Virus record (IMG/VR): IMGVR_UViG_3300008267_007212
Origin: a virus
Strand: one strand, 5' to 3'
Length of the DNA stretch: 64,000 bases
Shown: positions 4,232 through 63,800 of the stretch, in pieces
Layout: each line of letters opens with the position of its first letter
How positions within the stretch are numbered: the stretch's first letter is position 1
Notes under the pieces: model-generated
Database searches by the model: none
What the model was told of the DNA's origin: nothing
Seen by the model: the letters and a program-made list of their open reading frames with translations, nothing else
Translations under genes and position numbers: made by a program

Positions 4232-4978
4232 ATGACACAAAAAGAAACAGGTTTAGATGCTATGGCAGGTGATGGCGGTTATCGAGAAGAAAAATATCTA
4301 GGTAACTATCTTCGAGCTAAAATGAAGCGAGACGGAAAACGATTCTGGGCCGGTGATAACATTAGTGACTATCTGCACGACAGCGACAAAGAGCACTTAA
4401 TTAACGAAGCAACAGAAGCTTTTGAACTAGTATTGGATCGGTTACTTATCGACCGTGAAACTGATCCTAATAGCAAAGGCACAGCAAGGCGACTTGCAAA
4501 AATGTATTTTAATGAAATAATGGCAGGCCGATATGAATCGCCTCCAGATTGTACAGCATTTCCAAATGACAGTGAGGATAGATATGAAGGCATGTTGGTT
4601 GTTCGTAGTGAGTTGCGTAGTATGTGTAGTCATCATCACCAACCCGTTGCTGGCGTTGCTTATATTGGCATTATTGCCGCTGAGAAACTTATTGGCTTAT
4701 CGAAGTACACACGTATCGCGCAGTGGTGTGCAAGACGAGGTACTCTCCAGGAGGAACTTTGTAATGATATTGCTAGGGAAATTCAAAAGGCCACGGGTGC
4801 AAAAGATGTAGGTGTTTACATACAAGCAACTCATGGTTGTTGCGAAAATCGTGGCATCATGGCACATAGCTCGCTGACTCAGACTACTGTGCTCAAAGGT
4901 GCTTTTAAGGACGATCCTGGCACTAAGAAAGAGTTTTTCGACAATATTAAACTACAACAGGACTTTGCACCCCGATAA
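4232..4978 (+). CDS. folE: GTP cyclohydrolase I
   Basis: TARRLAKMY, SMCSHHHQP, GLSKYTR, LQEEL, HGCCENRG. Confidence 0.95.
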   Translation: MTQKETGLDAMAGDGGYREEKYLGNYLRAKMKRDGKRFWAGDNISDYLHDSDKEHLINEATEAFELVLDRLLIDRETDPNSKGTARRLAKMYFNEIMAGRYESPPDCTAFPNDSEDRYEGMLVVRSELRSMCSHHHQPVAGVAYIGIIAAEKLIGLSKYTRIAQWCARRGTLQEELCNDIAREIQKATGAKDVGVYIQATHGCCENRGIMAHSSLTQTTVLKGAFKDDPGTKKEFFDNIKLQQDFAPR

Positions 4979-4995
4979 TTTTTAATAGTAAACAA

Positions 4996-5003
4996 GATAA
5001 ATA
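4996..5003 (+). promoter_or_regulatory. T4-like late promoter motif GATAAATA
   Basis: Intergenic, 21 nt before ATG 5025. Confidence 0.45.
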
Positions 5004-5024
5004 TCAGATATAAAGGTGATTGAT

Positions 5025-5366
5025 ATGCAATTTGAATGGAAAGTATTAACTGATGTTAGGGCAGAAAATGGTATTGTGCAGTCTGCGTTGTATGGCTGTT
5101 TTTGCAGGGACGGACAGTTTATGAAAGAGTCACTGAACACCATGACTTTTACACACGATCCAGCTAATTCAGTGCCCTACGATCAAGTAACTAGAGAACT
5201 AATTCTGGAATGGATCTTGGCTAACTTAGGCTCTGCAGAAGTAACTCGTGTGCAAAATTATGTGTCAGATCTAATTACTGCCGAACAAACTTTACATGCA
5301 GAACAATTGGCAGCTCGACAAGCAGCAGAGTCAGTGCCCGCTGAAGATCAAACTACCCAAGAATAA
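5025..5366 (+). CDS. hypothetical protein resembling tail-fibre-associated small proteins
   Basis: ORF with SD AAAGGTG and VPYDQVTRELILEW motif. Confidence 0.6.
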   Translation: MQFEWKVLTDVRAENGIVQSALYGCFCRDGQFMKESLNTMTFTHDPANSVPYDQVTRELILEWILANLGSAEVTRVQNYVSDLITAEQTLHAEQLAARQAAESVPAEDQTTQE

Positions 5367-5401
5367 AGTTATTTCAACTTTAACATCTGTCTTATCAAAA
5401 T

Positions 5402-5430
5402 TTGAGGATATCTAGCCTCAATTGAATTTT
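5402..5430 (+). terminator. possible intrinsic terminator or stabilising hairpin
   Basis: TTGAGG-N8-CCTCAA followed by TTGAATTTT, intergenic. Confidence 0.35.
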
Positions 5431-5448
5431 AATCAAAGGAACCTAATC

Positions 5449-5658
5449 ATGGCAACAAAAACAGTGAGCAAACTCGGCGATAAATTAACAAAAGTAAATG
5501 AATCATTTACAATTAATATGTATGACAATGGATTCATGGTAGAAGTTGGTGGACGCAATAAAAAAGGCGACTATGTCAATGCTAAAATTTTATGTAACAC
5601 ATTAGATGAAATGCTGGCATTGGTCAAAGAAGCTGGTGAAATGGACAGGGATAGTTAA
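5449..5658 (+). CDS. hypothetical protein
   Basis: ORF; SD AAAGGA before ATG 5449. Confidence 0.75.
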   Translation: MATKTVSKLGDKLTKVNESFTINMYDNGFMVEVGGRNKKGDYVNAKILCNTLDEMLALVKEAGEMDRDS

Positions 5659-5660
5659 TC

Positions 5661-6080
5661 ATGGCTGTTTGGAAAATCACTAACTTACATAAAAAGAATG
5701 CCGTCGAGCGTCAATTCTGGACTAAGGATGGTATCACTGTAACCAAAGACGAAGGGTTTCGATGGGGAACTTGGACCTGCGACAGCGACGAGCGTCCTGA
5801 CATTGACTTAACTAATCCAGAAGGGTACGATGTACTTTGTACAGATTACGATTGGGAAATGGAAGACATGAATGATGGTTGTTGGGTAGAATGGACATTT
5901 CCCGATGACATGGATGAAGAAGAACAAGAACGTATTCAGGCTCTATGGGACGAAGATTGGTACGAAGGCATGGAAAGCGATGGGTGGACTAACGATGACT
6001 CTGAACACTGGATTTATGGTCCTATCCAATTAACAAATGTAGACACAGGCGAAGAATTTTCCGGAGAAAAAGATGACTAA
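5661..6080 (+). CDS. acidic hypothetical protein
   Basis: ORF, D/E/W-rich. Confidence 0.75.
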   Translation: MAVWKITNLHKKNAVERQFWTKDGITVTKDEGFRWGTWTCDSDERPDIDLTNPEGYDVLCTDYDWEMEDMNDGCWVEWTFPDDMDEEEQERIQALWDEDWYEGMESDGWTNDDSEHWIYGPIQLTNVDTGEEFSGEKDD

Positions 6081-6354
6081 CTGGTTAAGAAAAAAACTTA
6101 AAAACTTTTTATATCCCGATAATGAAGCAGAATTAGTTCCTTCTAGACTGTCAGTAACCAGTGGCGATGACATTCAGGAAGATAACACTCTAAGATTCAC
6201 TGTAACTCCTGCCAGAGGAGGAATCATTGTATCTGTTCGAAATTATAATAGAAAAAGAGACACTTCGGAAAATACTGTTCACGTTATTCACGACGATGAA
6301 GATGTTGCAAAGCATGTGTCCGAAATTGTCAGTCTGAGTCTGTTACGTAATTGA
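6073..6354 (+). CDS. hypothetical protein
   Basis: ORF, SD GGAG. Confidence 0.7.
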   Translation: MTNWLRKKLKNFLYPDNEAELVPSRLSVTSGDDIQEDNTLRFTVTPARGGIIVSVRNYNRKRDTSENTVHVIHDDEDVAKHVSEIVSLSLLRN

Positions 6355-6860: not shown

Positions 6861-7195
6861 TAGCATTACCTCCAGGTTGCACTGTAGTATATCCTATATG
6901 GATAGACATCAATAGTTTAACTAAAAATATAATTGATTGGTACGAACAAATTGGTGGTCGACAAAAAGTTGATACATATTGGAATCATCGCGGGCATGAA
7001 CATTCTAATGTATATGTAGCATACGGTCGTGGCAAATGGTGCCATCATCATCAAAACGGCGAAGGCGGCACCAGGTTGCATTTTAACGGAGAAGATGCTA
7101 GTATTGCATCTATGTTTATTATAAAATTTTTAGACAGCGTAATTAATCACAATCTTAAAGAACACATGGAAAGAATAGAAAATGAATATTACTAA
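6857..7195 (+). CDS. hypothetical protein (FxLKW-like family)
   Basis: ORF, ATGA coupling, HFNGEDASIASMFIIKF. Confidence 0.7.
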   Translation: MIALPPGCTVVYPIWIDINSLTKNIIDWYEQIGGRQKVDTYWNHRGHEHSNVYVAYGRGKWCHHHQNGEGGTRLHFNGEDASIASMFIIKFLDSVINHNLKEHMERIENEYY

Positions 7196-7703
7196 TAAAG
7201 AATATCAAGGTCTTGTTGCAAAGATTTGTAGAGATATTGCTAACAGTGGTTGGCGCCCAGATTACATTGTGGGCATGGTACAAGGTGGTATTGTACCGGC
7301 TGTAATGATTGGTAATTATTTTAATATTCCAGTGAACACTTTAAGCAAAAAAGAAAGTAACTTGTGGATGGCCGAGGATGCATTCGGTTACGTGACAGCA
7401 ACGACTACTCCGAGACCCACTGATGCAATTACCACAGATCCCAGTACACGCAAAAACATTTTGATTGTCAATGATATTAATGATACAGGCAGGACAATTA
7501 ATAATTTGATGGAAGACTGGCGTTCTGGATGTTTACCCAGCGACCCAGCCTGGAAAGACATTTGGAACAACAATGTTAAGTTTGCGGTGATTTATGATAA
7601 TGTCAGTAGCAAATCAAAAGTTACCGTAGATTTCTGCGGAGAAGAAATCTCTAAGAGCAAAAAAGAACGTATGGTATTTCCTTACGAGAATTGGTGGAGA
7701 TAA
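7182..7703 (+). CDS. type I phosphoribosyltransferase (Gpt/Hpt-like) with variant PRPP loop
   Basis: PDYIVGMVQGGIVPA, ILIVNDINDTGRT, VFPYE. Confidence 0.8.
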   Translation: MNITNKEYQGLVAKICRDIANSGWRPDYIVGMVQGGIVPAVMIGNYFNIPVNTLSKKESNLWMAEDAFGYVTATTTPRPTDAITTDPSTRKNILIVNDINDTGRTINNLMEDWRSGCLPSDPAWKDIWNNNVKFAVIYDNVSSKSKVTVDFCGEEISKSKKERMVFPYENWWR

Positions 7704-7706
7704 ATA
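7699..7706 (+). promoter_or_regulatory. T4-like late promoter motif GATAAATA
   Basis: 7 nt upstream of the structured queD leader. Confidence 0.5.
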
Positions 7707-7713
7707 CTTGCTC

Positions 7714-7783
7714 AGAGGACTTTAGGCATTCATCCCTCTATAAAAATTCTGCATGCCATCAAACTTGCTACCTAATAAAGGAG
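7714..7783 (+). ncRNA. candidate preQ1-class-I-like riboswitch (H-type pseudoknot) in the queD 5' UTR
   Basis: P1 AGAGG(7714-18)/CCTCT(7735-39) followed by A-rich ATAAAAA; loop GGCAT pairs with ATGCC (7753-57); directly upstream of queD. Confidence 0.6.
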
Positions 7784-7790
7784 ACTAGAG

Positions 7791-8297
7791 ATGGCAAATC
7801 TACAACCCGTACTTTACAAGTACACATCAACAAAAGAATATCACGACGCTTTTCCTTGTGCTTACAGACAATGGCGTGCGGATAGTCACTGTAATTTAAT
7901 TCACGGTTACAGTTTTTCAATGAAGTTTTATTTTGGCACCGACGATTTAGATGTCCGTAACTGGGCAGCGGACTACGGTGGATTAAAAGAACTTAAAAAG
8001 ACATTAGAAGATCAATTTGATCATACGCTTATCGTAGCACAAGATGACCCAGACATGGAGACATTTAAATTGTTACAGGAAAAGAATATGGCTAAGATTG
8101 TTGTATTACCCAAGCTAGGCTGTGAGGGACTTAGTGACATGCTCTACAAGTATGTCAATGGCGTTTATATCCCAGAGATGTGGGGACCAGGCGAAGCTGC
8201 ACGTTTGTGGTGCTATCGTGTTGAAGTTCGCGAAACACAAAGCAACATGGCGTATCGCGAAGGCCACCGTGAATGGAACGAAGACCTATTTGCATAA
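7791..8297 (+). CDS. queD: 6-carboxy-5,6,7,8-tetrahydropterin synthase
   Basis: HCNLIHGY (CxxxHG), DYGGLK, FDHTL, GCEGL, VRET; SD AAGGAG. Confidence 0.88.
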   Translation: MANLQPVLYKYTSTKEYHDAFPCAYRQWRADSHCNLIHGYSFSMKFYFGTDDLDVRNWAADYGGLKELKKTLEDQFDHTLIVAQDDPDMETFKLLQEKNMAKIVVLPKLGCEGLSDMLYKYVNGVYIPEMWGPGEAARLWCYRVEVRETQSNMAYREGHREWNEDLFA

Positions 8298-8464
8298 TCA
8301 AATTGAAAGAGTTATGGAGACTATGGGCTAAAGCCCTGGGCGAAAAAGCAGGTAGTACAGATCATGAAGCGGATCGTATTGCTTGCATTCGTACCGCAAT
8401 TGTGCTATCATATATTATAACAAACTGCTTTATTGTAGCAGGTGTAATTCGACATTGGAACTAG
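8273..8464 (+). CDS. small putative membrane protein (start uncertain)
   Basis: LWAKALGEKA...hydrophobic C-terminus. Confidence 0.6.
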   Translation: MERRPICIIKLKELWRLWAKALGEKAGSTDHEADRIACIRTAIVLSYIITNCFIVAGVIRHWN

Positions 8465-8753: not shown

Positions 8754-9630
8754 AGATATCAGATGGTTACACGTAGAAGCTAGTAGTAAGTGCAATGCAT
8801 GGTGTCCATCTTGTCCGAGAAATGTTAGCGGACACGGATTGTATCCGAATCTAACAGAACAAGATTTAGATTTATCAGTATTAAAAAAAACTGTAGAAGC
8901 GTTGCCTAACTTATATGCAGTACAGTTTTGCGGAAATCATGGAGATCCGTGTGCTGCTAAATCATTCTTAGATATGATCGATATAGTTAAATTGCATGTT
9001 AAAAAAATTCAAATACATACCAACGGTAGTATTAGAAATCAGCAATGGTGGGAAAAGTTAGCGCATAAGCTAGCCGATATCGAACATGATGTATGGTTTG
9101 GCATAGACGGATTAGCGGGTACACACGAATTATATAGGCAAGGGACTAGCTGGAATAAGATCATCGAAAATGCTACAACATTTATCGATAATGGAGGTTT
9201 CGCTACATGGCAGTTTATAACATTTAAACACAACGAGCACCAAATAAAAGATTGCTTAAAGTTAAGTCAAAAATTAAAATTCAAAAAATTTAAATTAATA
9301 AAATCATTTAGACGAACAGAAGAAGCAAAAGATTATGTTTCAGGAAAATCATATATAACACTGGAGCCTTCCTCAGTGCTTATAAAATCAATTAAAAATC
9401 TTACTAAGAGCTCGTCGGTCAGGAAAGAAAATTGTATGCATATGAGTCAACCTAGTATATATTTAGATTCTATGGGATCCTATAGTTATTGTTGCTATTA
9501 TACTTCAAATTGGGCATCGAACAAAATAAAATTTGACTCTTTGAAAGATATTTTTTATAATACAGTAGATATAACAAGCAGTCAATGCGTTAACTCATGC
9601 GGATCATCATATGAAACTCAAAGTCAGTGA
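8743..9630 (+). CDS. radical SAM protein with C-terminal twitch-like cysteines
   Basis: CNAWCPSC, GNHGDP, HTNGS, C-terminal C...YCC...CVNSC. Confidence 0.85.
   Translation: MLAEDIRWLHVEASSKCNAWCPSCPRNVSGHGLYPNLTEQDLDLSVLKKTVEALPNLYAVQFCGNHGDPCAAKSFLDMIDIVKLHVKKIQIHTNGSIRNQQWWEKLAHKLADIEHDVWFGIDGLAGTHELYRQGTSWNKIIENATTFIDNGGFATWQFITFKHNEHQIKDCLKLSQKLKFKKFKLIKSFRRTEEAKDYVSGKSYITLEPSSVLIKSIKNLTKSSSVRKENCMHMSQPSIYLDSMGSYSYCCYYTSNWASNKIKFDSLKDIFYNTVDITSSQCVNSCGSSYETQSQ
9533..9561 (+). promoter_or_regulatory. sigma70-type promoter for queE, inside the upstream radical SAM gene
   Basis: TTGACT-17-TATAAT. Confidence 0.6.
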
Positions 9631-10498
9631 ACTTTTCTATTCAGCACAAGGCGAAGGACGTTTTGTCGGAGTCCCCAGTGTATTCCTTCGAACCTTCGGG
9701 TGCAATTTTACTTGCAGTGGGTTTGGGTGTGCTCCGGGAGTTAAAAGCACTGAAGCAGATGATGTTGCAAAAAATGTTCATTTATACAAAGATTTTAACA
9801 GTCTCCCGCTAGTCAATACTGGGTGTGACAGTTATGCAAGTTGGCATCCAGCTTTTAAAGAACTAAGCCCAACCATTGACACTAATCAACTAGTAGACAG
9901 TATGTTAAAACTTACACCCAATAACAAATGGATTCAAGATAACGGGAACGATGTACATCTTGTTATCACCGGAGGAGAACCTTTATTGGGATGGCAACGT
10001 GCCTACGAAGAATTATTAAGCAATCCTAATATGTTAGATTTGCAAAATTTAACATTTGAAACAAACGGTACTCAAAAACTACTGCCATCATTTAGACAAT
10101 ATTTACTTAATTGGACATTAAATTCTAAATTAAATTCTAAAGGTGATCGTAGAACTAGTAACAATCTTACGTTTAGTGTCAGTGCTAAGTTAAGTGCCAG
10201 CGGTGAACGATGGGAAGATGCTATTTGCCCTGATATTGTAGCCAGCTATCAAGAATTAGGATATACCTATCTCAAATTTGTTGTGGAAACAGATGAGCAT
10301 TTTGCCGAAGTAGATCGGGCAGTAAAAGAATTTAGAACTGGCGGATTTAAAGGTTCTGTATATGTAATGCCTCAAGGCGGTGTTGTTACTCCTTACGAAA
10401 AAAATCGTGTAAGAGTCGCCGATTGGGCTTGTAGTAAAGGTTACTATTACAGCCCGCGACTGCACGTCGATCTGTGGGGTAATGGGTGGGGCAAATGA
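9611..10498 (+). CDS. queE: 7-carboxy-7-deazaguanine synthase
   Basis: ELFYSAQGEG...FLRTFGCNFTC...GCDS, ITGGEP, ETNGT, PRLHVDLWG. Confidence 0.92.
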   Translation: MKLKVSELFYSAQGEGRFVGVPSVFLRTFGCNFTCSGFGCAPGVKSTEADDVAKNVHLYKDFNSLPLVNTGCDSYASWHPAFKELSPTIDTNQLVDSMLKLTPNNKWIQDNGNDVHLVITGGEPLLGWQRAYEELLSNPNMLDLQNLTFETNGTQKLLPSFRQYLLNWTLNSKLNSKGDRRTSNNLTFSVSAKLSASGERWEDAICPDIVASYQELGYTYLKFVVETDEHFAEVDRAVKEFRTGGFKGSVYVMPQGGVVTPYEKNRVRVADWACSKGYYYSPRLHVDLWGNGWGK

Positions 10499-15200: not shown

Positions 15201-15208
15201 GATAAATA
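15201..15208 (+). promoter_or_regulatory. T4-like late promoter motif GATAAATA
   Basis: Intergenic, before ATG 15227. Confidence 0.45.
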
Positions 15209-51027: not shown

Positions 51028-51035
51028 TATTTATA
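51028..51035 (-). promoter_or_regulatory. canonical T4-type late promoter TATAAATA
   Basis: Exact match in the intergenic gap before the tail fibre ATG. Confidence 0.7.
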
Positions 51036-51650: not shown

Positions 51651-51803
51651 TTAATTTCCAGTTTCTACTATTACTTCACCAGACTCTGGATCTGTAATTT
51701 TTACAAAACCACGTACATAAATTCCCGTAGACTCGTTTGGTTTTTCTGGAACAGGTTTTTCAAGTTTTTGTTCCAAATCAGTGTTTGTATGGTTATTTAT
51801 CAT
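51651..51803 (-). CDS. 50-aa microprotein absent from the ORF track
   Basis: MINNHTNTDLEQKLEKPVPEKPNESTGIYVRGFVKITDPESGEVIVETGN*; AATAAATA at 51828-35 upstream. Confidence 0.65.
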   Translation of the reverse strand: MINNHTNTDLEQKLEKPVPEKPNESTGIYVRGFVKITDPESGEVIVETGN

Positions 51804-51842: not shown

Positions 51843-54800
51843 TTACCCTTGCAATCCTTGTTTTAAGAAACTTACCTGTAAAGTATTAGCATTAAATAGT
51901 CCCTGTCCGTTGGAAGCTGTGGTATTTCCCAGGACTCCATTGGCATTTGCTTGGGCAGAATTACCTAAATTGTACCAAATATTAGTTTGGGCAAAAGCAA
52001 CATTGGATTCAAAAGTATAATACGTAGTAAACCGTTCATCTGTCAGATTCACCAAAGAATTATTACTAATATAAGCAGAAGTATTGCTAATTACGTTACT
52101 GATAGTTCCTACTATATTTCCGCCATTGTCGTATAAATCATTGCCAACATTCAATTCGGCCAAGAATATAGTACCATTTCCAGTAATAATATTGCTGCTG
52201 GTATTTGCTGTAATATTTCCTGTATATCGAACGGTAACATTAGATATATTTGCAGCTACAAAATACGGTGTATTATTCGCAGAAATATATGCCCATTCGA
52301 CGGGATTTCCTTCTGGTACATCTGGATTTCTCTTTGTAACTGCTAATATCGCAACTGTATCACTTACCACATTGTCGATAGTGCCTATCAATTGTTGGCG
52401 AGTAAAAGTAGAACTTGTACTAGAATTTCCTAGAGTCGACTCTACTGCATTTTCGTCCTTTACACCTGCAAATATTTGTGTTCCCGGAGTTAATGTGGTA
52501 AATGTGGTGCCCACACCTTCTAATGTGCTGCTGTAAACATTTACATTAATTGTTCCAGGACCTTGGGATCTGGCGTACCATACACTATCCCCCGAATTAG
52601 GTATAATTTGATTTTGACTTCCATCTAGTACTATGTTGCCAACAAAATGATTTTTAGCGCCAGTTCCGCCAGTTCCTCTACGAATTCTTCCTAATATATT
52701 AGTTGTGTTATCCTTAGAGTAATAGGTAATTCTTTCACCATTAATATACACAACTCCAGGTTGGCCCCCGTTAGAAGACGGAGTAGCTAATTTACTGGCA
52801 TCTACTACTTGAATTGTAGTGTCTGTCAAACTTAAATTTGCAGCCAATGTAGTGGTACTTGCGCCATCCTCTCTAAGATATGTAAAGTTATCATTCATAT
52901 CTTTAAAGATTCTATAAGACATCATTGGCCAAGCATTTCCGCTGGGAGAAATGCTTAGTTTCATTATGGCCGTAGCAATAATTGGCGACGTGTTTGCGCC
53001 AGTGATAACCACCTGTGGCGTAGTATCATACCCCCCACCATTATTGACAACTTGGAATGATGTTGCAGATCCGTTTGAATTTAATATTACTTGTGCTTGC
53101 CCTTGTGTAAAATATCCGCCGCCTACTATAGTTACACCAATGTCAGCAGGAGAATATCCACTGCCTGGGTCAATAATTTGTATATAATCAAGTTGAATTC
53201 CGCTACCTGTTGACCAGTTAGTATAATAGCTAACAGTGGGATCTGTTGCTATGGTACTAATCGTCATATCCAGTGTGTCATATACTCTTCCGGGCACCAT
53301 TTCTTCAGGAGCATGGCTTGCATATGGTCCTACATTATAAATGGTCAAGTTGGCTGTAGAAAATACATTTCCTGTTGTGGTCGGGGTAACCACATACCAT
53401 ACTTTATCGTTGTAAGAAATTAAATCGCCTTTGTCATAATATCTATTGGCTTTCCACTCAGTGAAGTAACTATAAACAAAAGGTCCCCCGTCAACAATGA
53501 TGTCTTCGGGTTTTGTTCCTAAAGTAATATCATTGAAAGTACTGGTTATTTTAGCATCTAAAATGGCATCACTTAAAATAGGAATTCCGTTTTCGTCAAA
53601 TTCCAATGGATCAAATAGAGTGGCGTCGAATCCGTCGGCAGCACTGATTCCCTCCAATGGGGGTTCAGGACCCGATCCGCCAAATCCTCCGTTGTCACTG
53701 AACGTTGGGCCTTGTACTTTTACCCCGGGATAGTCGATGCCCGATTGTAACAATGACAAATCTTTTCCAGGTTGTCCTAATTCAGGTTGATAATATGCTT
53801 GAATTCTGTCATTTGCATTATTAATATTATCAATAGGATAAACTGTTAAGTTGACAAGAACATTCGAATTGAATGTTGTGGGTGAAGTAAACGTTTGATT
53901 TACAATGTAAGCAACCCCGTTGTAATCAATGATAGTTCCTTGAGTAAACGTAGTATCTGGTTTCCAATCTACAATTGTAGTAGAATATGTATATCTATCA
54001 TAAACTAGAGTAGTTTTAATGTTTCTGACTAATCCGTTGACTAAATTAGCGCGAGCTATCGCGCCTGAACCATTGCCACCTGTTATAGTGATAACCGGGG
54101 TAGTAACATAATCACTTCCAGGATATAATAATACTATTTTTGTTAGAACTCCGTCAGTGATCAAAGCTCTTGCTACTGCATCATTGCCGTTTCTACTACC
54201 TGTAATAGTTATTATTGGGGGCAAGGTATAGCCAGAGCCGCCATCTATAATATCTATAGAAGCAATACTATAAGCATAATTAGATAACCAGTTGGCATAT
54301 TCAGGTTGCTGTAAAAATCTTGCATCTTGAATAAATTCGCCGCTAGGACTTCTTGTAGTTTTTAATACACTATCGTAAGTTGGTGGAACATCAAAATCAG
54401 ACACATAACTGTTATAATTGTCGTACCCTAGATAATCTACTACATATTCTCGGAGTGTAGTTTTATAAGGTTTAACTTCTTCTATGTATTGTTTATAGAA
54501 TTCTTGATTTTCTTTGATGTAGATTGCAGGTTGGTTTAGTCCTTGTATCTTTTGTAATACATTAATGAAGCTGGTCTTAAATAACCAATCTACATACTTT
54601 TGTTCATCTAGTATATAGTTAATGAATACAAAAAACAGATTTAAGAATTTAGAATCAAGTTGATCAATAAAAATATCATCTCTAAGAGTTTGTAGAATTT
54701 GTCTAGTTTCTATTCCAGGATTTTGATCAAATCTTATAGTATCAAAATTATCTGCATCAAACCCGAGACCGAATTCTTCTAGTGCGTAAAGATTTTTCTT

Positions 54801-57800
54801 AAGTTCAATGGTGCCATCTTGAATTCCGACAGTGATCACTGTATTAGGGAATACTTGAATCATGAACCATTTGCCTTGACCATTGTTGTTAATTTTAACC
54901 AGATCCTGCGATCGCAAAGTTAAATCATTCAATTGAGCACTAGTTTCGATAGTATATGTCGGTTTTACTGTTCTATCAAACCCCCGAGCATACCAATCTT
55001 TATATTGCCAGTATTCACTGGTTGCATAACTCTGTACTCTATTTAAATTCCATTCATTTTGTACTTGATAATAGGTATAGTCGTCAATATTAAATGTTGC
55101 ACCGGTTGTAATAGTTTGATTTACAGTATATGTGATGCTGTTATATCTGACGATTGTATTTGTTAAATACCGAGTATTTGGTTGCCACTCGTCGATCACT
55201 CCGTCTTTAATATAGATAGTCCATAAATTATCTACAGAACTGTCATTCTGTACTAATACCTTGTAGCCCATCGGAAGGATTGCGATATTTATGTAGCTTA
55301 ATTCTTCAAGATTAGTTACGACTAAATCATACGCACCAGAATTAGGCACAGGTTCAGGTTCGCCTTCACTTAGTCTGGTTAAATCATATCCTTGACTAAT
55401 AACATTTAAATCGAATATAGAATTAACATAAAGAACCATTTCTCGAATAGCTTCGTTTCTATCGATAAACATGCTTTGTCGAGGTCTGATATCAATTCCG
55501 TATCTATTTTGCACTGCAAGAGTTGGGTCTGGCACAGGATTACCAAATCTGTCAATTCCGCTGGCACTGTCTAATAGCTTATTGTATATGTTCTCTGGAA
55601 TGTCAGCCGATTTATTATTGGTATCTGACAGCAGTGCATATTCATTATGGATAATGTTACTGTTTAATAGTGTTGCATAATCTAAATGAAATATAATATC
55701 TCTACCCACTGCTTCGTTGACCATATTATAAAAAGCAATCGAATCGTCTCTTACTGCGGCAAAGTATTTCACTCCACTGTTCTTAGGAGATGCAATATAA
55801 CTTGCAACAGTTGTGGTAGGAATAGTTCTTCCAAATTGATTGGCAGAAACGGTTGTTTTATTTTTTACCCAGAAATAGTATTTTACTGTGGCAAAATTTG
55901 TAGCAGGATCTATGTAGGTTAATGTTACATATGCACCATTTCCACTGTATTTGGGTTCTCCGTCACCGCCGTTTGCAACATACTGACTAGGAGGATATAA
56001 ACTTTCTACCCATTCGTAGACGTCAATACTGCTGCTAGGGAATACTCGCCCCCAGTTTGTGGTTCTATATTTAATACTACCTTGCTCATAATCAATATAC
56101 CTGACAGTGCTTAAATCCCACCACAATTGTCCTACTTGTTGATCAGTCCAATAAAGATTATTATTAACGCTTACATCGTCGGCACTAGCATTATTATAGA
56201 TAGCAGGATCATAATCAATTTTATAAGTAAGTTCCTGTTCAGCCAGTCCAAGAATTTTACCTTTTGCTGGATCGATATAATCTAAGTTATATTGAACTGT
56301 TTGTGTTAATGCATTATAGGTATATGCTTTAATAATACCATTAATATCAACCTTAGGTTCTTGACTTCTGAGTACGTCCCATCCTAATAGATTTGTCGGA
56401 TTAGCAAACTTATAAACTCTTCCACCATTGAATGCTAATTGTTTATTATTCTTAGATCCAACAATTAATTCGTATTTGCTAATAGATATGGCACTACCAA
56501 ATCCATCATTTGTTTTTAATCCATCATTTGTAGTTGTAGGAGTTAGCTGTTGTATGAAAGTAAATATACCAGGAGTTTCTATGGTTGATAAGTTATTTGG
56601 CAAGTATGAATAAATCCAGACTGCGCCGCTATCGTCTACTGGTTCGCTGAAGATTGTCAATTCCCCGTCAAACGTTGTAGGATTTGGTGTATATATTTTA
56701 GAGTTATCAAAAACAGTAGATTGTAGTGTTGCTGCAATATCGCTGGCCACCACTAGTATATCACTGTTGTTGTTTATTTTAACAAGTTTTCCAAAGTAGT
56801 CGTATGATTTAGTTGAATTATTGTAGATAATATCCACTTCTGGAAAAATATCTAGTCCTAAATCTGTAATTGCTGTGCCTACGCCAGGTAACACATTTAA
56901 TTTATTAAATGTAACTTCTGAGTCACTAACCAATTTCAATTTATTATTTTCGATACTTGCAGTGACACCAGGAATCTTAGGACCAATGGGTTCACCGAGT
57001 GCATTTACATTATTGATAGCATTAACTACACTTGACAATGAGGTGTCAGTGAATTGTACGGCATAGTTATTAATTCTAATAGAATCTCCGCTATTTACAG
57101 TAGCGTTAGCTTTAGTTCCTACTATTTCACCGTATACTTTTCCTTGATTCAGGAATCGATATACGGCCCCGTTATATAAATTAACTTCGGACTGATAAGG
57201 AGCTCCTATATAAAGACTACAACTATTTGTGCATATATCCAAACTATAACCAAATTGTTGATCCGTGAATGGTTGTGCTGGCACTGTCGTTTGTATCGGA
57301 TGGAATACATTGGTTTCTATAGTTAATATTTTACTTTGCCCAGGTGGATTGTAAAATGTTATTAGATTTAGCGTACTATTACTGACATACCAATCTACTC
57401 CAACAAATTTTTCTATATTGTCGACGTACACTCTTGTGTATTGTGTGACTGTGGCTACTGCATTAAAAGTAACAGTAAGATTATCTTGTACAATAAAATT
57501 ATTAATCGATCTATTCCACAAATGCACTGCGCCGGAATCTGTATATGTTGTAATATTACCACCGATATTAGCAGTTACATCTTCCAATGGTGCACCAATC
57601 ATAATCTGTGATCCGTCAACTGTTGCACTCAAACTATAACCAAATTGACTACCCGCATTACCTGCTATTGTTCCTACTAAATTATATCCTGGTCTTTGTG
57701 AAATAACTATAGTTCCTGCAGGTGGAGGCAATGTGAATGAAATCGTTGAAGAGCTTAAAGTATAATCTCTATAAGGAACATATGTGGCCGAAGATCCCTG

Positions 57801-60800
57801 AACATAAATGGTTTCTGCACTCACTGGGACATACGGTAGAGTAAATGAACTAACTGATCCGTTCGGAGTTAATGTTACCACTTCTTGTTCAGGCACGGTA
57901 TTATCGTACCCATATATGTAAACAATGTCATCATCTGGCGCGCCAATATATAACCAGTTATCATCTGCGCTAATAGCAATACTAGTTCCAAAACTTCCTA
58001 CGTTAGCACTAATCGGCGATAATATTTGTGTGTCAGATAATGTTCCGACATTTTCTCTATTATATACAAAAACATAACCAATACCGTTACTACTCTCCGG
58101 AGCTCCAGTTATTACTTTGGTGTTTCCGCTTTCGATAACAGAACCCATCTTAACTGTGGCATTTGCACTAGAAGTAAGAGTCACATCCTCTACTAATACT
58201 CCATTAAAATTAATAACGTAGTTAGTAATAGCACCAACATTGCCATTATATCCGGGTTGTCCAATCACTGCAAAATTATCATCAGTTGCAAGATTTACCG
58301 CGGCACCAAATTGGAAATTATTTTCCAAAGTTCCTTTTTGTAATGCTGTGGTCAATCTCCACGGATCTGTCTTGTTGTAAACGGCCCAGTCTCCTGCAGA
58401 GTTATAGGAATTTACCCATACTTTATTGTTAACACTCCATCCAAGTCTAGGAGTCAAATTTGTGATCCCAAGAGGACTATCAACTTTCATGCTGATCAAT
58501 TTATATAATTGACCAGTCTGATTAAACGTACTAAATCCACGAAGATCTCCGGTAAATTCAACTATAAAACTAGTTAATCCGGTAACATTTTGTACTTTAT
58601 AAAATCCAGTAAATTTGTCTACTCCGGTTAATAAAATAGTATCATTTTTTACCAACCCGTGAGATTTATTTGTGTTTATTTTAACCTTTGTATTCAGGTC
58701 ATTACTTAAACTTATAACACTGCACTCAGAGTCTGACACTCTGTATACGTTCCAATTTTGTTGATAATCTTTTGCTATCCAAATTGTTGATCCGGCAGTT
58801 ATATTAGATATGTCTGCATTTAATGTAGAAACGTTGGTTAAATCAAATAACGTAAAGTCAATATCATCAATGCTAACATAACCCGCAGTTCGAATATCAT
58901 CGCTATAATCGCTGTCAACGGTTCTGTTTATTAAAAAAGGCGATGACCACGGAACTGAACTGGTTTTATACAATCCCTGATTGTCAGTGTACAGAGAACT
59001 AAACAACACAGAATTATTAGATCGAACTTCTAAGCTAGTTGGGTTACTCAATAAATATTTTTCCTCAAGCACCAGTTCTAAAAATTGGTTAGTTCCAGTG
59101 CTACCATAAGAACCAACTCTAAACGCCCAGTCTTCACTGACTGTTACATCGCTGGGACGTCCGCTAAAGCTAACTTTACCCAACGCATTAATTGCATTTA
59201 ATGTTCCTTTTTCTTTAATGAACCCTTGATAAAATTTAACTTGACTGGTATCATCTAGTCCCAAATCATTTAAATAACTTCTATCTCTGTAACCAATTAA
59301 TCCCAATGCGTATCGATCAAATTCGCTTTCTAAGTTAACTTTATCAACATTATAAAATGTCTCGCCTATTCCTGCGTTACGTGCAAAATTATTCAAAAGA
59401 CCTGTTTTAATTTTATTTCTATCGACTGGCAACCAATCACTGAATTTGAATTCAGTTGTGCCCGGTAAATTTTTACTGGCTGTGTAATAAAAGCTCTTAT
59501 ACTCGACCAAGTCTCCTTGTAAATAATCTTTATTCGGTCTCCAAGCAGCAACACCTGGTTGATTATAAACGAATCCCAGTGCAGATAATGTCCCGGTCCA
59601 CTCACCCGTCTTAGAACCTATAAGTTTTAACCGATATTGACGTTGCCCCATTATGGGATCGTAAATAATATCATTAAACTGTGTTCTATTATCAAAAATT
59701 AAAACATGTTCATATTGTACTAAATTAAGATCTACATATCCTATTAGGTCTGTGGTGCTAGTCAAAGATAAAACAAATGTATTGTTATCCCGGGCTACGG
59801 TATAGTTGTCTGTATTCAAAACTTTATAATTTTGATTTAATACTTTTGTGCCATAAAATGAATTATTGATTCCGTCAACTACGGCAGTAGTATTAAATAA
59901 TTTTAAATTATTAGAAGCAGGACTTAGAACAATAACACTGTTAATTGTCCACCCCTGTTGCGTCCAAAATAAAAATTCTTTAGTGCTTAATTGCCAATTT
60001 TTAATTTGAGCCAACGTTTCGTCATAGTAATCAAATTTAAATCCTTGTAATTGAAGGTATCGTTCATATCCACTGATAAAGTTTGCAACTTGTTGTAGTG
60101 TAGTTAATTCGGTGCCGTAAGGGATATTAATTTTAAAATTTGTAAACTCAGTGTAGTAATTTACAGTTCGCTTTTCTGACTTAACTAATTGATACTCTCC
60201 AGTCTGGGCAGGTGGCACAATTGTAAAATACGGTCTCTCATTGTCGTAGCCTGAGATAGTAAAACCATTTCCAGTTTTTTCTATTATTACTGCACTATAT
60301 CTAGAATTAAACACTGGAGTAGATTTATGTAGCGTTAGATTATAGTTGTCATCGGGGACAATAATAGTTTCGTTGGTGCTATTTGGACTATTTTGTTCAG
60401 CTAATATCTTTAAATAATTTTTGCCGCTGAACCCTGCCATTCTATAAGACAATTGAATAGAATAGTCCCTAACAAAATTTAACAATGGAGTTTTGTCTGT
60501 TGCTCCACGAGTTACTTGATAATCACTGATCCAGTTCAAATATCCTGAAGCTCTAGATATATCTCCTGACAAGTTTACATATCCATTGACATCAATGTCT
60601 TCTTGTGTAATTCTATTATTTGTGCCCGTTATTAAATATTGATCTAAATCGACATTATATCTATATTTGCTTGTTGTAATACCGTAAGCAAAATATTTTC
60701 CAGGATTAATTATTGCAGAGGTGTATTGCACTGCAAAAGGATACTCACTACTATTTCTCCAAGCAGTTTCAACTGGGCTGAACTGACCCATATTCCAATT

Positions 60801-63800
60801 ATCATTGAACTGTGTGGAATCATACTTATTGGTTAAAAGACCAATAGGCGGCAGTAATTGTCCGTTTTCATTTACTGGAATAAAGTTACTTAATCCAGGT
60901 CTTGCAAATTTAGTGTCAATGCCTACCCTGCTACCAGCTGCAATGTAACCAGCTTCTAAATCGTCCCATAAAATTTTATTACCAGAAGTATACGGAGCAG
61001 GACCATATGTAGATCTCCACCAGTCTGGTTCTTCACTGAATCCCAGCATTTCCCATGGTGCAGTATTAGGTCTCTGAGTATCATAAAAATACTGAAAACA
61101 TGCACGCCATGAACCAGGCAGTGCTTGACCATTGACTACATCTAATGCAGTGCTATAATTATAACTAAAAGCTGCATCATTTTGATATGTAGTATTCTCT
61201 ACATAATTCAAATTATTAACGCTAGCCCATTGCAAATAAAAACGAGATAATAAATTATTATACTGAGATATAGTATAGCCAGAGTCTCTGAATTTACCAG
61301 GAATCGAATCGTAAGGGGACACTAGTTTATCACTGTATTGAACTTTAATGTTATTGTAAATTCGTTTTTCTAATTCTAAAACAATATTATCTCTGAAATC
61401 GCCAAAACTAGGTGTTAAGCTGCCGTCGTGCCCCCTTATCATAACTTGGGGATTTGTATATGTTATGTCAGTATAAATTGCTGGTGTAAATTTTGGATAT
61501 AATCCTAATTTCGAAGGCGTTTCGGGAACCCAATTACCATCCGTGTCTTGATACTCAACAATTGTAAGAATGTTGCCAACTGCTAATGTTATATTGTTTT
61601 TTATACTGACCCCAGGGCCTGTTACTAAAAATTCATAATCACGTCCGTATAATAATTGACTACCGTTCAAATAAATTAAAATAGACCGATTACTTAATGT
61701 TTCATTTGAAAAAATGGTTGTAAGTTCATAATTACGTTGTTGCGGATTAAAGATATTGTAAGTTATTACATTTTTGTTATCTCCATATGGCACCATATCA
61801 CTGTAGTACCACGGAAAAGTCTTATCCTTAACTGAATTTATTTGTTTAATAATATAGTCCACTGCGCCAACAGGATCACTTGGATTGATCTGACTGCTGT
61901 TGCTTGCAATGTTTATAAACTTATTTTTAAATCTTATATATTCTTGCTGAGCATTAATTAATCCAGATGCAAAATTATATTTTTCGTCGCTCAAGAACAT
62001 AGAAGCAAAGCTAACAGGTGCGCTCTGCTGTAACATAGTACCAGACTGATTTTCGATATATAAATCTCTTAGATTGCTTACTCCTGGATAATTTCCAATA
62101 AAATATAAACTATTTTTACTCAATGAACCTATATGATTTCGTAATTCTCCTAACGTTGGAGTCCCTAAAATTCTATTTTGTGCATTTAAATTTAAATTAT
62201 CAGGGATCTGATAAAATCCAAGACTGCTGATATTTTTACTATAAACAAGAATATCTACTCTGTCATTGATTTGTAATTTAGCTTTCTTTATTACAATTAA
62301 AATTCCGTCTGGCACATTATACGCAAAATAATCATTGATTGATATTTCTTTAAAATTAACGTATATTAATATATTAGGTTTAACTGTTGCTACTTCTGGA
62401 ATAATATCAATTTTGAATGAATTGTCTACCCCATCATAGGTAAACGGTATATCTTGCATTTGCCTGGTAGTAGTATTAACATTGGTCCATACATTAAGTT
62501 TTGTAATACTACCATCTGTATTATTTTTATATAGTAATCCTGAATCTATTTTTTTAGTATAAACAACTTTGTCTATACCATAACTAAATGATTCAACATC
62601 AAAATTATTGTCAAACTGTATATCACCTATATTATTAAAATTTTTATAACTTAAAGGAAAACCTAAGATAGGATCAGCTGTTCCAGTGCCTGTCTTATAG
62701 CTAAAAATTTTAGTACCATTAAATTGTGTAGCAGAATTGATTACTGGATATTTTACACTATCAGAAAAACTAACGCCTTCATTGTCGAAAACATCAAATA
62801 AGGGAGGCTGATTTATACCAGTCTTACTTTGTCCTTCGATCCAAATTTTATCCAAAAAGTAAAAACTTTTACCGTTGTTAACCACTCCATTAAAAACACT
62901 AACAGTATTAAAATCTGATATGTCGTCAACAGGTATTAAATGTATTACTTCATTGGCCAACGGATCTCCCGACACATTTTCAAATGTTACTTGCCAGATT
63001 TTATCTCTAACTCCAGCATCGTTGTCAGCAGAAAAAATTACACGCATTCCTTGAACCAAACTGATACCGTCAACGAAAATAGAAGTTTTACCTTCAACTG
63101 ACAAAAATGCATTTGTGTATACTGTGTCAAATATATCAACAGGTGACTTGGCTGTTTTTCCAAAATTAATTAATTGCAAGTCTGCATCAAATTCTATAAT
63201 AGGGCGTTTTGCTCGTTGATTTGAGTCGAAAACTTGCGGAGTATTGTTATATAAACTGGTTAATTCAATTATATCTTTATGAAACCAACGATTTCTTCGA
63301 GTCCATGGATTAAGGTCTCTACTGGCTCTGCTAATAATAATGTAATCAGGATCAGACAAACTAGTATTAGTGTCTATATTTGTACTTCCGTAATACGCTC
63401 TTCCGATTATGTAAGGATAAATCGGAGTTCCATCACTGGCTTGTGTTGTAAAATATGCATATGTGCCATTGGGAAATTCTGGTGTTACACAAAAACGTCC
63501 ATTGTATTGATCTAGCGTACCGCTGTCTTGTACATAAGAGTAGTCTTCGATAAATGCTCCTGCCAGAAATTCGAATGTAATAGTTACCCCAGCTGATAGT
63601 GTAACACTGCTACTAAGTTGTATCTGACTTGCAGTACCTAAAAATGGTGGCAGTCCTACTGCTGTTTTTAATCCGTTATTAATTATCCACACACTGCCAG
63701 ATTCTAACCCGGCAGAATTAACCGTTATTCTCATACCAGGATTTAATCCATTGGTACTAGACACAGTAATTAAATTGCTATTAACAACATCAGCAGTAAC

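Follow-up and report, generated by a model that had tools for sequence, protein, structure and literature searches.

The window analysed here, a 64,000-nt stretch of DNA from an uncultured freshwater phage (IMG/VR record IMGVR_UViG_3300008267_007212), contains a run of genes in which neighbors overlap or abut. However, the open reading frame (ORF) with a PRTase domain ends at position 7703, and the next gene, queD, starts only at 7791. The 87-nt gap between them raised the question of whether this leader encodes an RNA switch, and if so, whether this is the class I preQ1 riboswitch (preQ1-I) that controls genes of the same pathway in bacteria. The original prediction proposed a variant preQ1-I aptamer that would sense CDG, 7-deazaguanine or preQ0 and provide feedback control of a phage base-modification pathway from a late-type promoter. 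The observation on which it rested, a preQ1-I-like fold in the gap upstream of queD, was confirmed. Its interpretation was supported only in part, because membership of preQ1-I and feedback control were not supported.

Gene context and promoter of the queD leader

The gene downstream of the gap (7791-8297, + strand, as are the promoter candidate and the RNA features described below) encodes a 168-aa protein of the QueD/PTPS family (Pfam PF01242, 7.3e-15; phrog_2389, 2.9e-35). FolE is located at 4232-4978 and a QueE-like gene at 9611-10498. No QueC, QueF or TGT was found among the 20 ORFs annotated between 65 and 12909, and QueC and TGT were also lacking in a relative that is 100% complete. This agrees with the original prediction, which stated that the visible pathway lacks QueC and QueF, as far as the annotated part of the window is concerned.

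The sequence GATAAATA (7699-7706) is a plausible late-type promoter (T4-like NATAAATA), as the original prediction proposed. It overlaps the stop codon (7701-7703) of the PRTase-domain ORF and ends 7 nt before the first helix of the RNA. The ATAAATA motif is depleted in the window (12 sites, against 34.6 expected), and by our reading of the ORF list about half of the sites lie just upstream of the start of an ORF on the same strand. In the relatives, TAAATA or TAAGTA ends 3-16 nt before P1 in 92 of 147 distinct upstream regions, and 27 have a sigma70-like promoter there, so that the element would be located at the 5′ end of the transcript. The promoter function is inferred from sequence. No terminator was found in the leader, which suggests that control is translational. 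The stretch occurs in freshwater and lake metagenomes, but when one metatranscriptome, one run of uncertain type (guessed to be RNA, but flagged as probably DNA) and two DNA runs were analyzed, only contigs were obtained, which showed no transcript start or end and no evidence of expression.

The leader folds into a conserved H-type pseudoknot

The motif AGAGG-N16-CCTCTATAAAAA occurs once in the window and in none of 100 dinucleotide shuffles. The region 7714-7757 is predicted to form an H-type pseudoknot, in which P1 is formed by AGAGG (7714-7718) and CCUCU (7735-7739), and P2 by GGCAU-U-CA (7725-7732) and UG-C-AUGCC (7750-7757). The P2 of the original prediction (GGCAU 7725-7729 with AUGCC 7753-7757) was therefore confirmed, and it was extended through a conserved U.C mismatch (U7730.C7752) by two further pairs, CA (7731-7732) with UG (7750-7751); in three unique sequences the A-U of these becomes G-C. 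A single-sequence minimum free energy (MFE) z-score for the leader was unremarkable (-0.95), so the evidence for the fold is comparative and not thermodynamic.

Covariation in homologous leaders had been named beforehand as a test of the fold, and both helices covary strongly. In P1, 99.7% of the cells are paired across 59 distinct sequences, against 32-58% in slid controls, and 3 of the 5 pairs change on both sides (A-U/U-A, G-C/C-G and C-G/A-U/U-A), whereas the GG/CC at the top of P1 is invariant. In P2, 84.8% of the cells are paired against 21-40% in slid controls, 6 of the 7 pairs change on both sides (in 112 cells), and the covariation score was 0.426 against 0.183 in shuffles. The sequences are related, and therefore the shuffle controls overstate their independence. 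The many G.U pairs in P2 fix the strand as +.

The loops are also conserved. L1 (7719-7724, ACUUUA) consists of N-C-U followed by a U-rich spacer of variable length; it is 3-9 nt long in the relatives and shows no 3-nt periodicity, so it is not coding. The CU at positions 2-3 is conserved, and the first base is U in 57, C in 43 and A in 24 of 124 distinct aptamers. L2 (7733-7734, UC) is 2-3 nt long and ends in a C immediately 5′ of the P1 3′ strand that is invariant in the queD-anchored alignment; the last two bases before P1 are UC in 98, CC in 18 and AC in 8 of the 124 distinct aptamers. L3 (7740-7749, AUAAAAAUUC) is an A-rich loop with a nearly fixed length of 10 nt, in which A at positions 3, 5 and 7 and the terminal UC are invariant. 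Its docking in the minor groove of P1 is inferred only by analogy with other H-type pseudoknots.

The element is linked to queD in phages

All 75 queD-anchored viral loci that include upstream sequence carry the element. In an RNA-anchored scan, 117 of 120 instances were followed by QueD within 900 nt, at 34-96% identity. The other three are a contig end and two loci with an inserted ORF, and in one of the latter PTPS was confirmed behind the insertion. Each phage record tested contains one copy, at 50-62 bits, with the next hit at 12.8 bits or less, and in the window the element scores 64.2 bits and the next hit 8.1 bits. The element is abundant: more than 590 QueD relatives are present in IMG/VR, so that the covariation data are already rich enough to guide mutagenesis.

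We then analyzed whether the element is present outside uncultured phages. A degenerate pattern scan of 185,579 species genomes gave at least 120 hits, and of 120 filtered for P1 complementarity only one was a full instance, on a 5.9-kb MAG contig that looks like phage DNA; this says little about absence from cellular genomes. A blastn search with 7100-8400 found only a short match, in the small ORF downstream of queD, in the phages Syn9 and Syn10. The best QueD relatives in GenBank phages are 51% identical or less, and the five that were checked (ACP17, X1, PhiXhv-15, Motura and Phosso) lack the element, so that no cultured carrier was found. In these scans the element appeared only in uncultured phage contigs. 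Literature searches for a phage queD, PTPS or 7-deazaguanine riboswitch found no description of it.

The element resembles preQ1-I but is not recognized by its model

In order to test whether the element belongs to preQ1-I, the Rfam RF00522 covariance model was used, which has a gathering threshold of 39 bits. No hit was obtained at the gathering score or at E<=1 on the whole window, and no PreQ1 hit at E<=10 on 301 nt or on 61 nt of the leader. In the genomes of three relatives the queD leaders were not among the hits, and the best hit elsewhere was 21.4 bits. Reciprocally, a Lachnospiraceae preQ1-I that scores 51.4 bits with RF00522 scored only 4.2 bits (E 0.57) with a model of the phage motif (R1), and only P1 and the AUAAAAA tail aligned. 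The other families among the 4227 of Rfam 15, including preQ1-II, preQ1-III, SAM-II, fluoride and guanidine-III, gave no match at E<=1 over the window, and only chance-level hits (E about 1-9) to unrelated families appeared in the leader.

Despite this, several features are shared with preQ1-I (types I-III, e.g., B. subtilis queC, T. tengcongensis, C. antarcticum and E. coli): the H-type topology with a 5-bp P1 and a P2 formed between the P1 loop and the 3′ tail, the A-rich L3 that runs AUAxAAA, and the location in the leader of a 7-deazaguanine pathway gene. The original prediction was thus right about the resemblance of P1, of the cytosine before the P1 3′ strand and of the A-rich tail. In preQ1-I this cytosine is the specificity base, within UC in type I and AC in types II and III, and the closing G-C pair of P1 is conserved (PMC11625349). 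Both features are present here, but they show a position in the sequence and not a ligand contact. Other features differ. The L1 of preQ1-I has 2-3 nt and starts with a conserved U (U6, or the UU motif) that reads the ligand, whereas the conserved bases of the phage L1 are C-U at positions 2-3, and L1 of the window starts with A. The P2 of preQ1-I has 3-4 bp (4 bp in PMC10639078) and directly follows the A-rich L3, whereas in the phage element P2 has 7 pairs plus the U.C mismatch, and L3 has three extra bases that end in the invariant UC. In addition, the ligand-bound pseudoknot of preQ1-I hides the Shine-Dalgarno (SD) sequence or favors a terminator (OFF switch), whereas here the SD is not in P2, but 20-30 nt downstream (21 nt in the window).

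An alternative helix would sequester the queD start codon

The distal P2 3′ strand together with three further bases (UGCCAUC, 7754-7760, which shares 7754-7757 with P2) can instead pair with GAUGGCA (7790-7796), which contains the queD start codon (7791-7793). This helix closes a long hairpin that includes the SD sequence AAGGAG (7778-7783), and an inner CCU/AGG stem joins 7771-7773 with 7779-7781. The helix is also present in the MFE fold of the window. An RNAalifold consensus over 35 distinct leaders with type A or C expression platforms, the types to which the window belongs, gave 7 pairs that were kept in all of them and broken only at the terminal pair, in 3 sequences; one pair is compensatory (C-G to U-A in 8 sequences) and the other changes are wobble-compatible. 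Of 145 distinct leaders, 119 have at least 6 contiguous pairs between the 16 nt starting at the P2 3′ strand and the start-codon region, whereas shuffles gave a mean of 25.5 and a maximum of 39. The 3′ strand of this helix is constrained by coding (AUG GCN), so its conservation is weaker evidence than that for P1 and P2. The energies are of switch-like size: the platform hairpin is -13.8 kcal/mol, or -5.4 when the P2 strand is blocked, and the P2 duplex is about -6.8.

In the commonest platform type (B, 95 of the 145 distinct leaders), P2 shares only its last two C's with an SD-proximal hairpin, and a second possible pairing (UAUGCU with AGCAUG, or UGCUAU with AUGGCA) makes the direction of the switch ambiguous. 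In this type, L3 and the loop of the platform hairpin coincide with a -35 (TTTACA or TATACA) and an extended -10 promoter, so part of the L3 conservation may reflect an embedded promoter.

The original prediction also proposed that CUUUA in L1 (7720-7724) pairs with UAAAG (7776-7780), which overlaps the SD. This pairing exists in the window, but across the 145 leaders the complementarity between the pyrimidine-rich L1 and the SD only modestly exceeded that of composition-matched shuffles (120 against a mean of 98.7 with at least 4 bp), and it was absent in the sub-type with AGGAGG SDs. It remains a weak possibility and not a conserved helix.

A model for the queD leader and its alternatives

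In our preferred model, with a probability of about 0.55, the region 7714-7757 is the aptamer-like domain of a phage-specific cis-regulatory RNA at the 5′ end of the queD mRNA. The pseudoknot and the alternative helix exclude each other, so that whatever stabilizes the pseudoknot would free the SD and the start codon and turn queD translation ON. The most likely stabilizer would be a small molecule bound at the P1/P2 junction that pairs with the L2 cytosine, and hence it should have a guanine-like face (a 7-deazaguanine, a pterin intermediate or a guanine compound). The fold with its conservation and covariation, the alternative helix and the exclusive link to queD are results of this analysis, whereas ligand binding, the identity of the ligand (including the CDG, 7-deazaguanine or preQ0 of the original prediction) and the ON direction are inferred. 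Feedback control implies an OFF switch, which is not what the platform of the window predicts; on the other hand, all known preQ1-family switches are OFF switches, which speaks against the model.

The strategy would resemble that of translational ON riboswitches such as the Vibrio vulnificus add adenine riboswitch and guanidine-III, in which an aptamer strand doubles as the sequestor of the translation start region, so that aptamer folding releases the SD and the AUG. Guanidine-III is also a small H-type pseudoknot. No sequence or model similarity to them was detected in the Rfam searches, and the gene context here is biosynthetic rather than salvage or detoxification.

The main alternative, which we consider less likely than the preferred model, is a ligand-independent element. 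The pseudoknot could be an operator for a phage or host protein, in the manner of the T4 gene 32 or RegA translational operators, or a constitutive fold that keeps the start site open, stabilizes the 5′ end of the mRNA, or responds to temperature or Mg2+. T4-like phages use protein translational repressors, RNA operators and RBS-sequestering hairpins (gene e, soc), and A-rich L3 loops and conserved junctions also occur in pseudoknots that bind no ligand. The queD leader shares with the T4 gene 32 leader pseudoknot and these hairpins that a T4-like phage mRNA leader has a 5′ pseudoknot or a hairpin that hides the start site. In type B leaders the embedded sigma70-type promoter would produce an unsequestered transcript without the aptamer, as in T4 gene e, which suggests timing control through the choice of transcript. 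However, the T4 elements work through a protein (gp32) or through promoter choice, have no conserved junction resembling a metabolite pocket, and are not tied to a metabolic gene. In the phage element the invariant unpaired bases cluster at the P1/P2 junction, as in ligand pockets, the link is exclusive to one metabolic gene across QueD proteins as divergent as 34% identity, and the element resembles a known aptamer for that very pathway. Furthermore, no conserved partner gene accompanies it, since PRTase is upstream in 13 of 94 loci and MazG downstream in 9 of 73.

It is still less likely that the element is a true, divergent preQ1-I that binds preQ1 or preQ0 and represses queD. The shared features described above favor this view, as does the match of P1 and tail to the B. 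subtilis aptamer as given in the original prediction. Against it are the failure of each covariance model to detect the other family, the differences in L1, P2, L3 and SD position, the ON direction predicted by the wiring in types A and C, and the absence of QueC, QueF and TGT from the genes examined, which suggests that preQ1 is not the product of these phages. Finally, a chance resemblance or a purely DNA-level signal, for which only the coincidence of type B leaders with a promoter speaks, is contradicted by the compensatory changes in both helices with strand-specific G.U pairs, and by type A and C leaders, including the window, which lack the embedded promoter yet keep the fold.

A more far-reaching reading remains possible, but is tentative: this would be a new riboswitch class, so far seen only in uncultured (mainly freshwater) phages, that reuses the pocket architecture of preQ1-I but senses a different guanine-faced metabolite, either a pathway precursor such as dihydroneopterin triphosphate or GTP, or a 7-deazapurine such as CDG or preQ0. 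The metabolite would turn ON queD translation, gating a FolE-QueD-QueE pathway that lacks QueC and DpdA and probably feeds a nucleotide-level deazapurine route. Riboswitch classes known only from viruses are essentially undescribed. A validated phage-borne ON switch built on the preQ1-I scaffold would show how a minimal aptamer fold is re-tuned through a longer P2, a new L1 and an extended L3, and would provide a compact ON-type part of about 85 nt for synthetic biology. It would also give a handle on when and why phages switch on 7-deazaguanine synthesis, here by a pathway that has no QueC or DpdA.

Conservation of the queD leader element

The leader reads as described in the original prediction. 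The upstream ORF (7182-7703) carries a phosphoribosyltransferase (PRTase) domain (PF00156, 2.8e-8) and ends at 7703, and queD starts at 7791 (PF01242 at 7.3e-15; phrog_2389 at 2.9e-35), which leaves 87 nt in a region where the genes otherwise overlap or abut. The string AGAGG-N16-CCTCTATAAAAA occurs once in the window and in none of 100 shuffles. Neither a terminator-like site nor a sigma70-like promoter was found in the leader. The observation itself is confirmed.

We then analyzed whether the element is conserved. A QueD-anchored search of IMG/VR found 590 relatives, of which 80 loci were kept, and all 75 loci that include upstream sequence carry the same element directly before queD, although in one of them (locus L028) P1 has 4 pairs plus a U.U. 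An independent RNA-anchored scan with the pattern CCCGCTWTAYAAAYTCTGC found at least 120 loci. In 117 of these 120, a QueD homologue lies within 900 nt, usually starting 40-70 nt after the pattern, and identity to the window's QueD ranges from 34% to 96%. The other three are a contig end (locus L279) and two loci (L300 and L308) with the same inserted 293-aa ORF. In L300 this ORF (4922-5803) has no Pfam match, lies between the conserved leader and a PTPS gene (5805-6302), whose presence was confirmed, and has its own ATAAATA-like sequence upstream, so that it may be a mobile gene. In some other relatives (loci L257, L268, L245, L329 and L242) another ORF or an N-terminal extension lies between the leader and the conserved QueD core, the ORF in L257 appearing cupin-like by eye only; the RNA would therefore control whatever is first in the operon. 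A covariance model built from 60 distinct sequences (R1) scored the window at 64.2 bits, with the next hit at 8.1, and found exactly one copy, at queD, in each of five large phage records (50-62 bits, next hit 12.8 or less).

Near-identical DNA occurs in freshwater and lake metagenomes, whereas no cultured phage carrier was found. A pattern scan of species genomes gave at least one full instance, on a small MAG contig. In public runs X6, X13 and X20 the summed contig depth over window 7737-7803 peaks over the 3' half of the leader and the queD start, a conserved stretch that many related phages in the same samples share, and the natural variants 7758 A>G and 7776 T>C match sequence types seen in IMG/VR relatives. 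Literature searches found no description of the element.

Both helices of the pseudoknot covary

P1 is formed by 7714-18 with 7735-39, and it is paired in 99.7% of cells over 59 distinct sequences, against 32-58% in slid controls. Three of its five pairs change on both sides, the variants being AGAGG/CCUCU, AGCGG/CCGCU, AGUGG/CCACU, ACCGG/CCGGU and UGCGG/CCGCA. The P2 helix of the original prediction (GGCAU/AUGCC) is real and longer than proposed. Counting from the junction, CA (7731-32) pairs with UG (7750-51), and in three unique sequences from two P1 types the A-U of these becomes G-C; next comes a conserved U.C mismatch (7730 and 7752), and then 4-5 variable pairs. When P2 was tested on 91 distinct sequences in a register-preserving alignment, 84.8% of cells were paired, against 21-40% in slid controls, six of 7 pairs showed changes on both sides (in 112 cells), and the covariation score was 0.426 against 0.183 in shuffles. 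Abundant G.U pairs place the structure on the + strand, and L1 lengths of 3-9 nt rule out coding.

The anatomy is therefore that of an H-type pseudoknot, with a 5-bp P1, an L1 that reads N-C-U plus a U-rich spacer, a P2 of 7 pairs plus U.C, and an L2 of 2-3 nt ending in an invariant C. L3 is 10 nt in 190 of the 191 instances seen (WUAYAAAYUC, with A3, A5, A7 and the terminal UC invariant), and 11 nt in the remaining one (locus L055).

An alternative helix could sequester the start site

In the window's platform type (A) and in a shorter type (C), the distal P2 3' strand plus three or four bases (UGYCRUC or UGYCAUUG) is complementary to the start region (GAUGGCR or CAAUGGCA). RNAalifold on 35 distinct platforms returned exactly this 7-bp helix, in which pairing is kept in every sequence apart from the terminal pair in three. 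One pair is compensatory (C-G to U-A in 8 sequences) and the other changes are wobble-compatible, although the 3' strand is also constrained by coding. In the window this helix (7754-60 with 7790-96) closes a hairpin that also covers the SD. The platform folds at -13.8 kcal/mol, which falls to -5.4 when the P2 strand is blocked, and the P2 duplex is worth about -6.8 before tertiary contacts. The two states are thus comparable in energy, and they exclude each other over 7754-57, so that pseudoknot formation should expose SD and AUG. In a crude partition-function test, the mean unpaired probability of SD to AUG rose from 0.30 to 0.49 in the group that contains the window's type.

Over all 145 distinct leaders, 119 have at least 6 contiguous pairs between the 16 nt starting at the P2 3' strand and the start region, whereas shuffles give a mean of 25.5 and a maximum of 39. 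In the commonest type (B, 95 leaders) the link is weaker; P2 shares only its terminal CC with a CCUAUG/CAUAGG hairpin that covers part of the SD. In addition, the segment UAUGCUAU could alternatively pair with AGCAUG or AUGGCA, so the direction of the putative switch could not be fixed for this type.

Promoter candidates upstream of and within the leader

TAAATA or TAAGTA ends 3-16 nt before P1 in 92 of 147 distinct upstream regions, including the window (GATAAATA, 7699-7706). In 27, mostly type A/C, a sigma70-like promoter has its -10 element ending mostly 6-9 nt before P1. The element therefore begins at or near the 5' end of the inferred transcript. ATAAATA is three-fold depleted in the window, with 12 sites (e.g., 4997-5003, 7700-7706, 15202-15208, and on the - strand 51028-51034 and 51794-51800) against 34.6 expected. 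By our reading of the ORF list, about half the sites lie shortly upstream of same-strand ORF starts, which fits a T4-type late promoter. The window's - strand also holds a single ORF of 4006 aa (51843-63863; 4051 aa if read to the window's end).

In type B leaders, an extended -10 (TGnTAnnnT) sits in the loop of the platform hairpin in 92 of 95 distinct leaders (e.g., L001:2954-2982, in a relative), with exact TATAAT in 56. The -35 is TTTACA or TATACA, formed by the aptamer loop L3, at mostly 17-18 nt spacing. This promoter would produce an aptamer-less queD transcript starting at the SD, in loci that mostly have a late-type promoter upstream of P1. It may also explain why L3 position 4 is C in type B but U or A in types A and C. 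The window's leader lacks this promoter.

The element resembles preQ1-I riboswitches but is not recognized as one

The preQ1-I riboswitch is described (JBC 2024 review, PMC11625349; PMC10639078) as an H-type pseudoknot with a 5-bp P1, a 2-nt L1 that starts with a conserved U, a 4-bp P2, a conserved G-C closing pair on P1, a specificity cytosine just before the P1 3' strand (as UC in type I and AC in types II and III), an A-rich L3, and OFF regulation by SD occlusion or by termination. The phage element shares the topology, the 5-bp P1 with a GG/CC top, the cytosine (mostly as UC) and the AUAxAAA tail. However, RF00522 gave no hit even at E<=10 on 61 nt, nor at the queD leaders of three relatives. 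In the reciprocal test, R1 scored a genuine preQ1-I (ACUGG-UUCGAGAACCUC-CCAGU-AUAAAAAA-CUAGG) at 4.2 bits, whereas RF00522 scored the same RNA at 51.4 bits. Furthermore, L1 lacks the conserved U, P2 is twice as long, L3 has an extra invariant UC, the SD is outside P2, and the predicted wiring is reversed. We therefore regard the element as working, by inference, like a preQ1-I-type pseudoknot aptamer, but not as a member of that family. A sub-threshold RF00522 hit (21.4 bits, E 0.005) was found in one relative's record (G003), about 11 kb downstream of its queD (L081:1501-1576). It has a GAGGU/ACCUC stem, UUC after the stem, a loop with a roughly 40-nt insertion, and an ACUAAAAAACUAA tail, and may be coding sequence or a degenerate preQ1-I-like element.

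The interpretation that this is a preQ1-I-like riboswitch exerting feedback control is therefore only partly right. The analysis establishes a real, conserved and covarying riboswitch-like pseudoknot that resembles preQ1-I, whereas the binding of a ligand is inferred, and the element is probably an ON switch rather than a feedback OFF switch. We put the probability of this main explanation at about 0.55. Its chief rival, a protein-bound or ligand-free element, appears less likely, although it is not excluded; membership in the preQ1-I family is not supported by the comparisons above.

The RNA lies in a FolE-QueD-QueE module

The window encodes FolE (4232-4978), QueD, a QueE-like radical SAM enzyme (9611-10498), two further radical SAM proteins, a MazG-like protein and the PRTase, and no QueC, QueF or TGT was seen in the annotated part. 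FolE, QueD and a QueE-like enzyme are also present in five relatives (G001-G005). In the records of these five, one of them a 383-kb genome rated 100% complete, there is no TGT/DpdA match, and QueC matches are only weak and partial, the strongest being a C-terminal match in G004 (30.3 bits with its neighbours in the frame), about 3 kb downstream of its queD. This suggests a nucleotide-level 7-deazapurine route rather than DpdA-type DNA modification. Across the RNA-anchored loci the constant partners are FolE, which lies upstream on the same strand in 64 of 120 loci, and QueE, which lies downstream in 41 of 73 loci with enough sequence, while PRTase (13 of 94) and MazG (9 of 73) are occasional. 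This context does not discriminate between product sensing and feed-forward control by a precursor, the latter of which would need an ON switch, but it fits both, and the RNA would gate the step after FolE in a FolE-QueD-QueE (CDG-forming) module.
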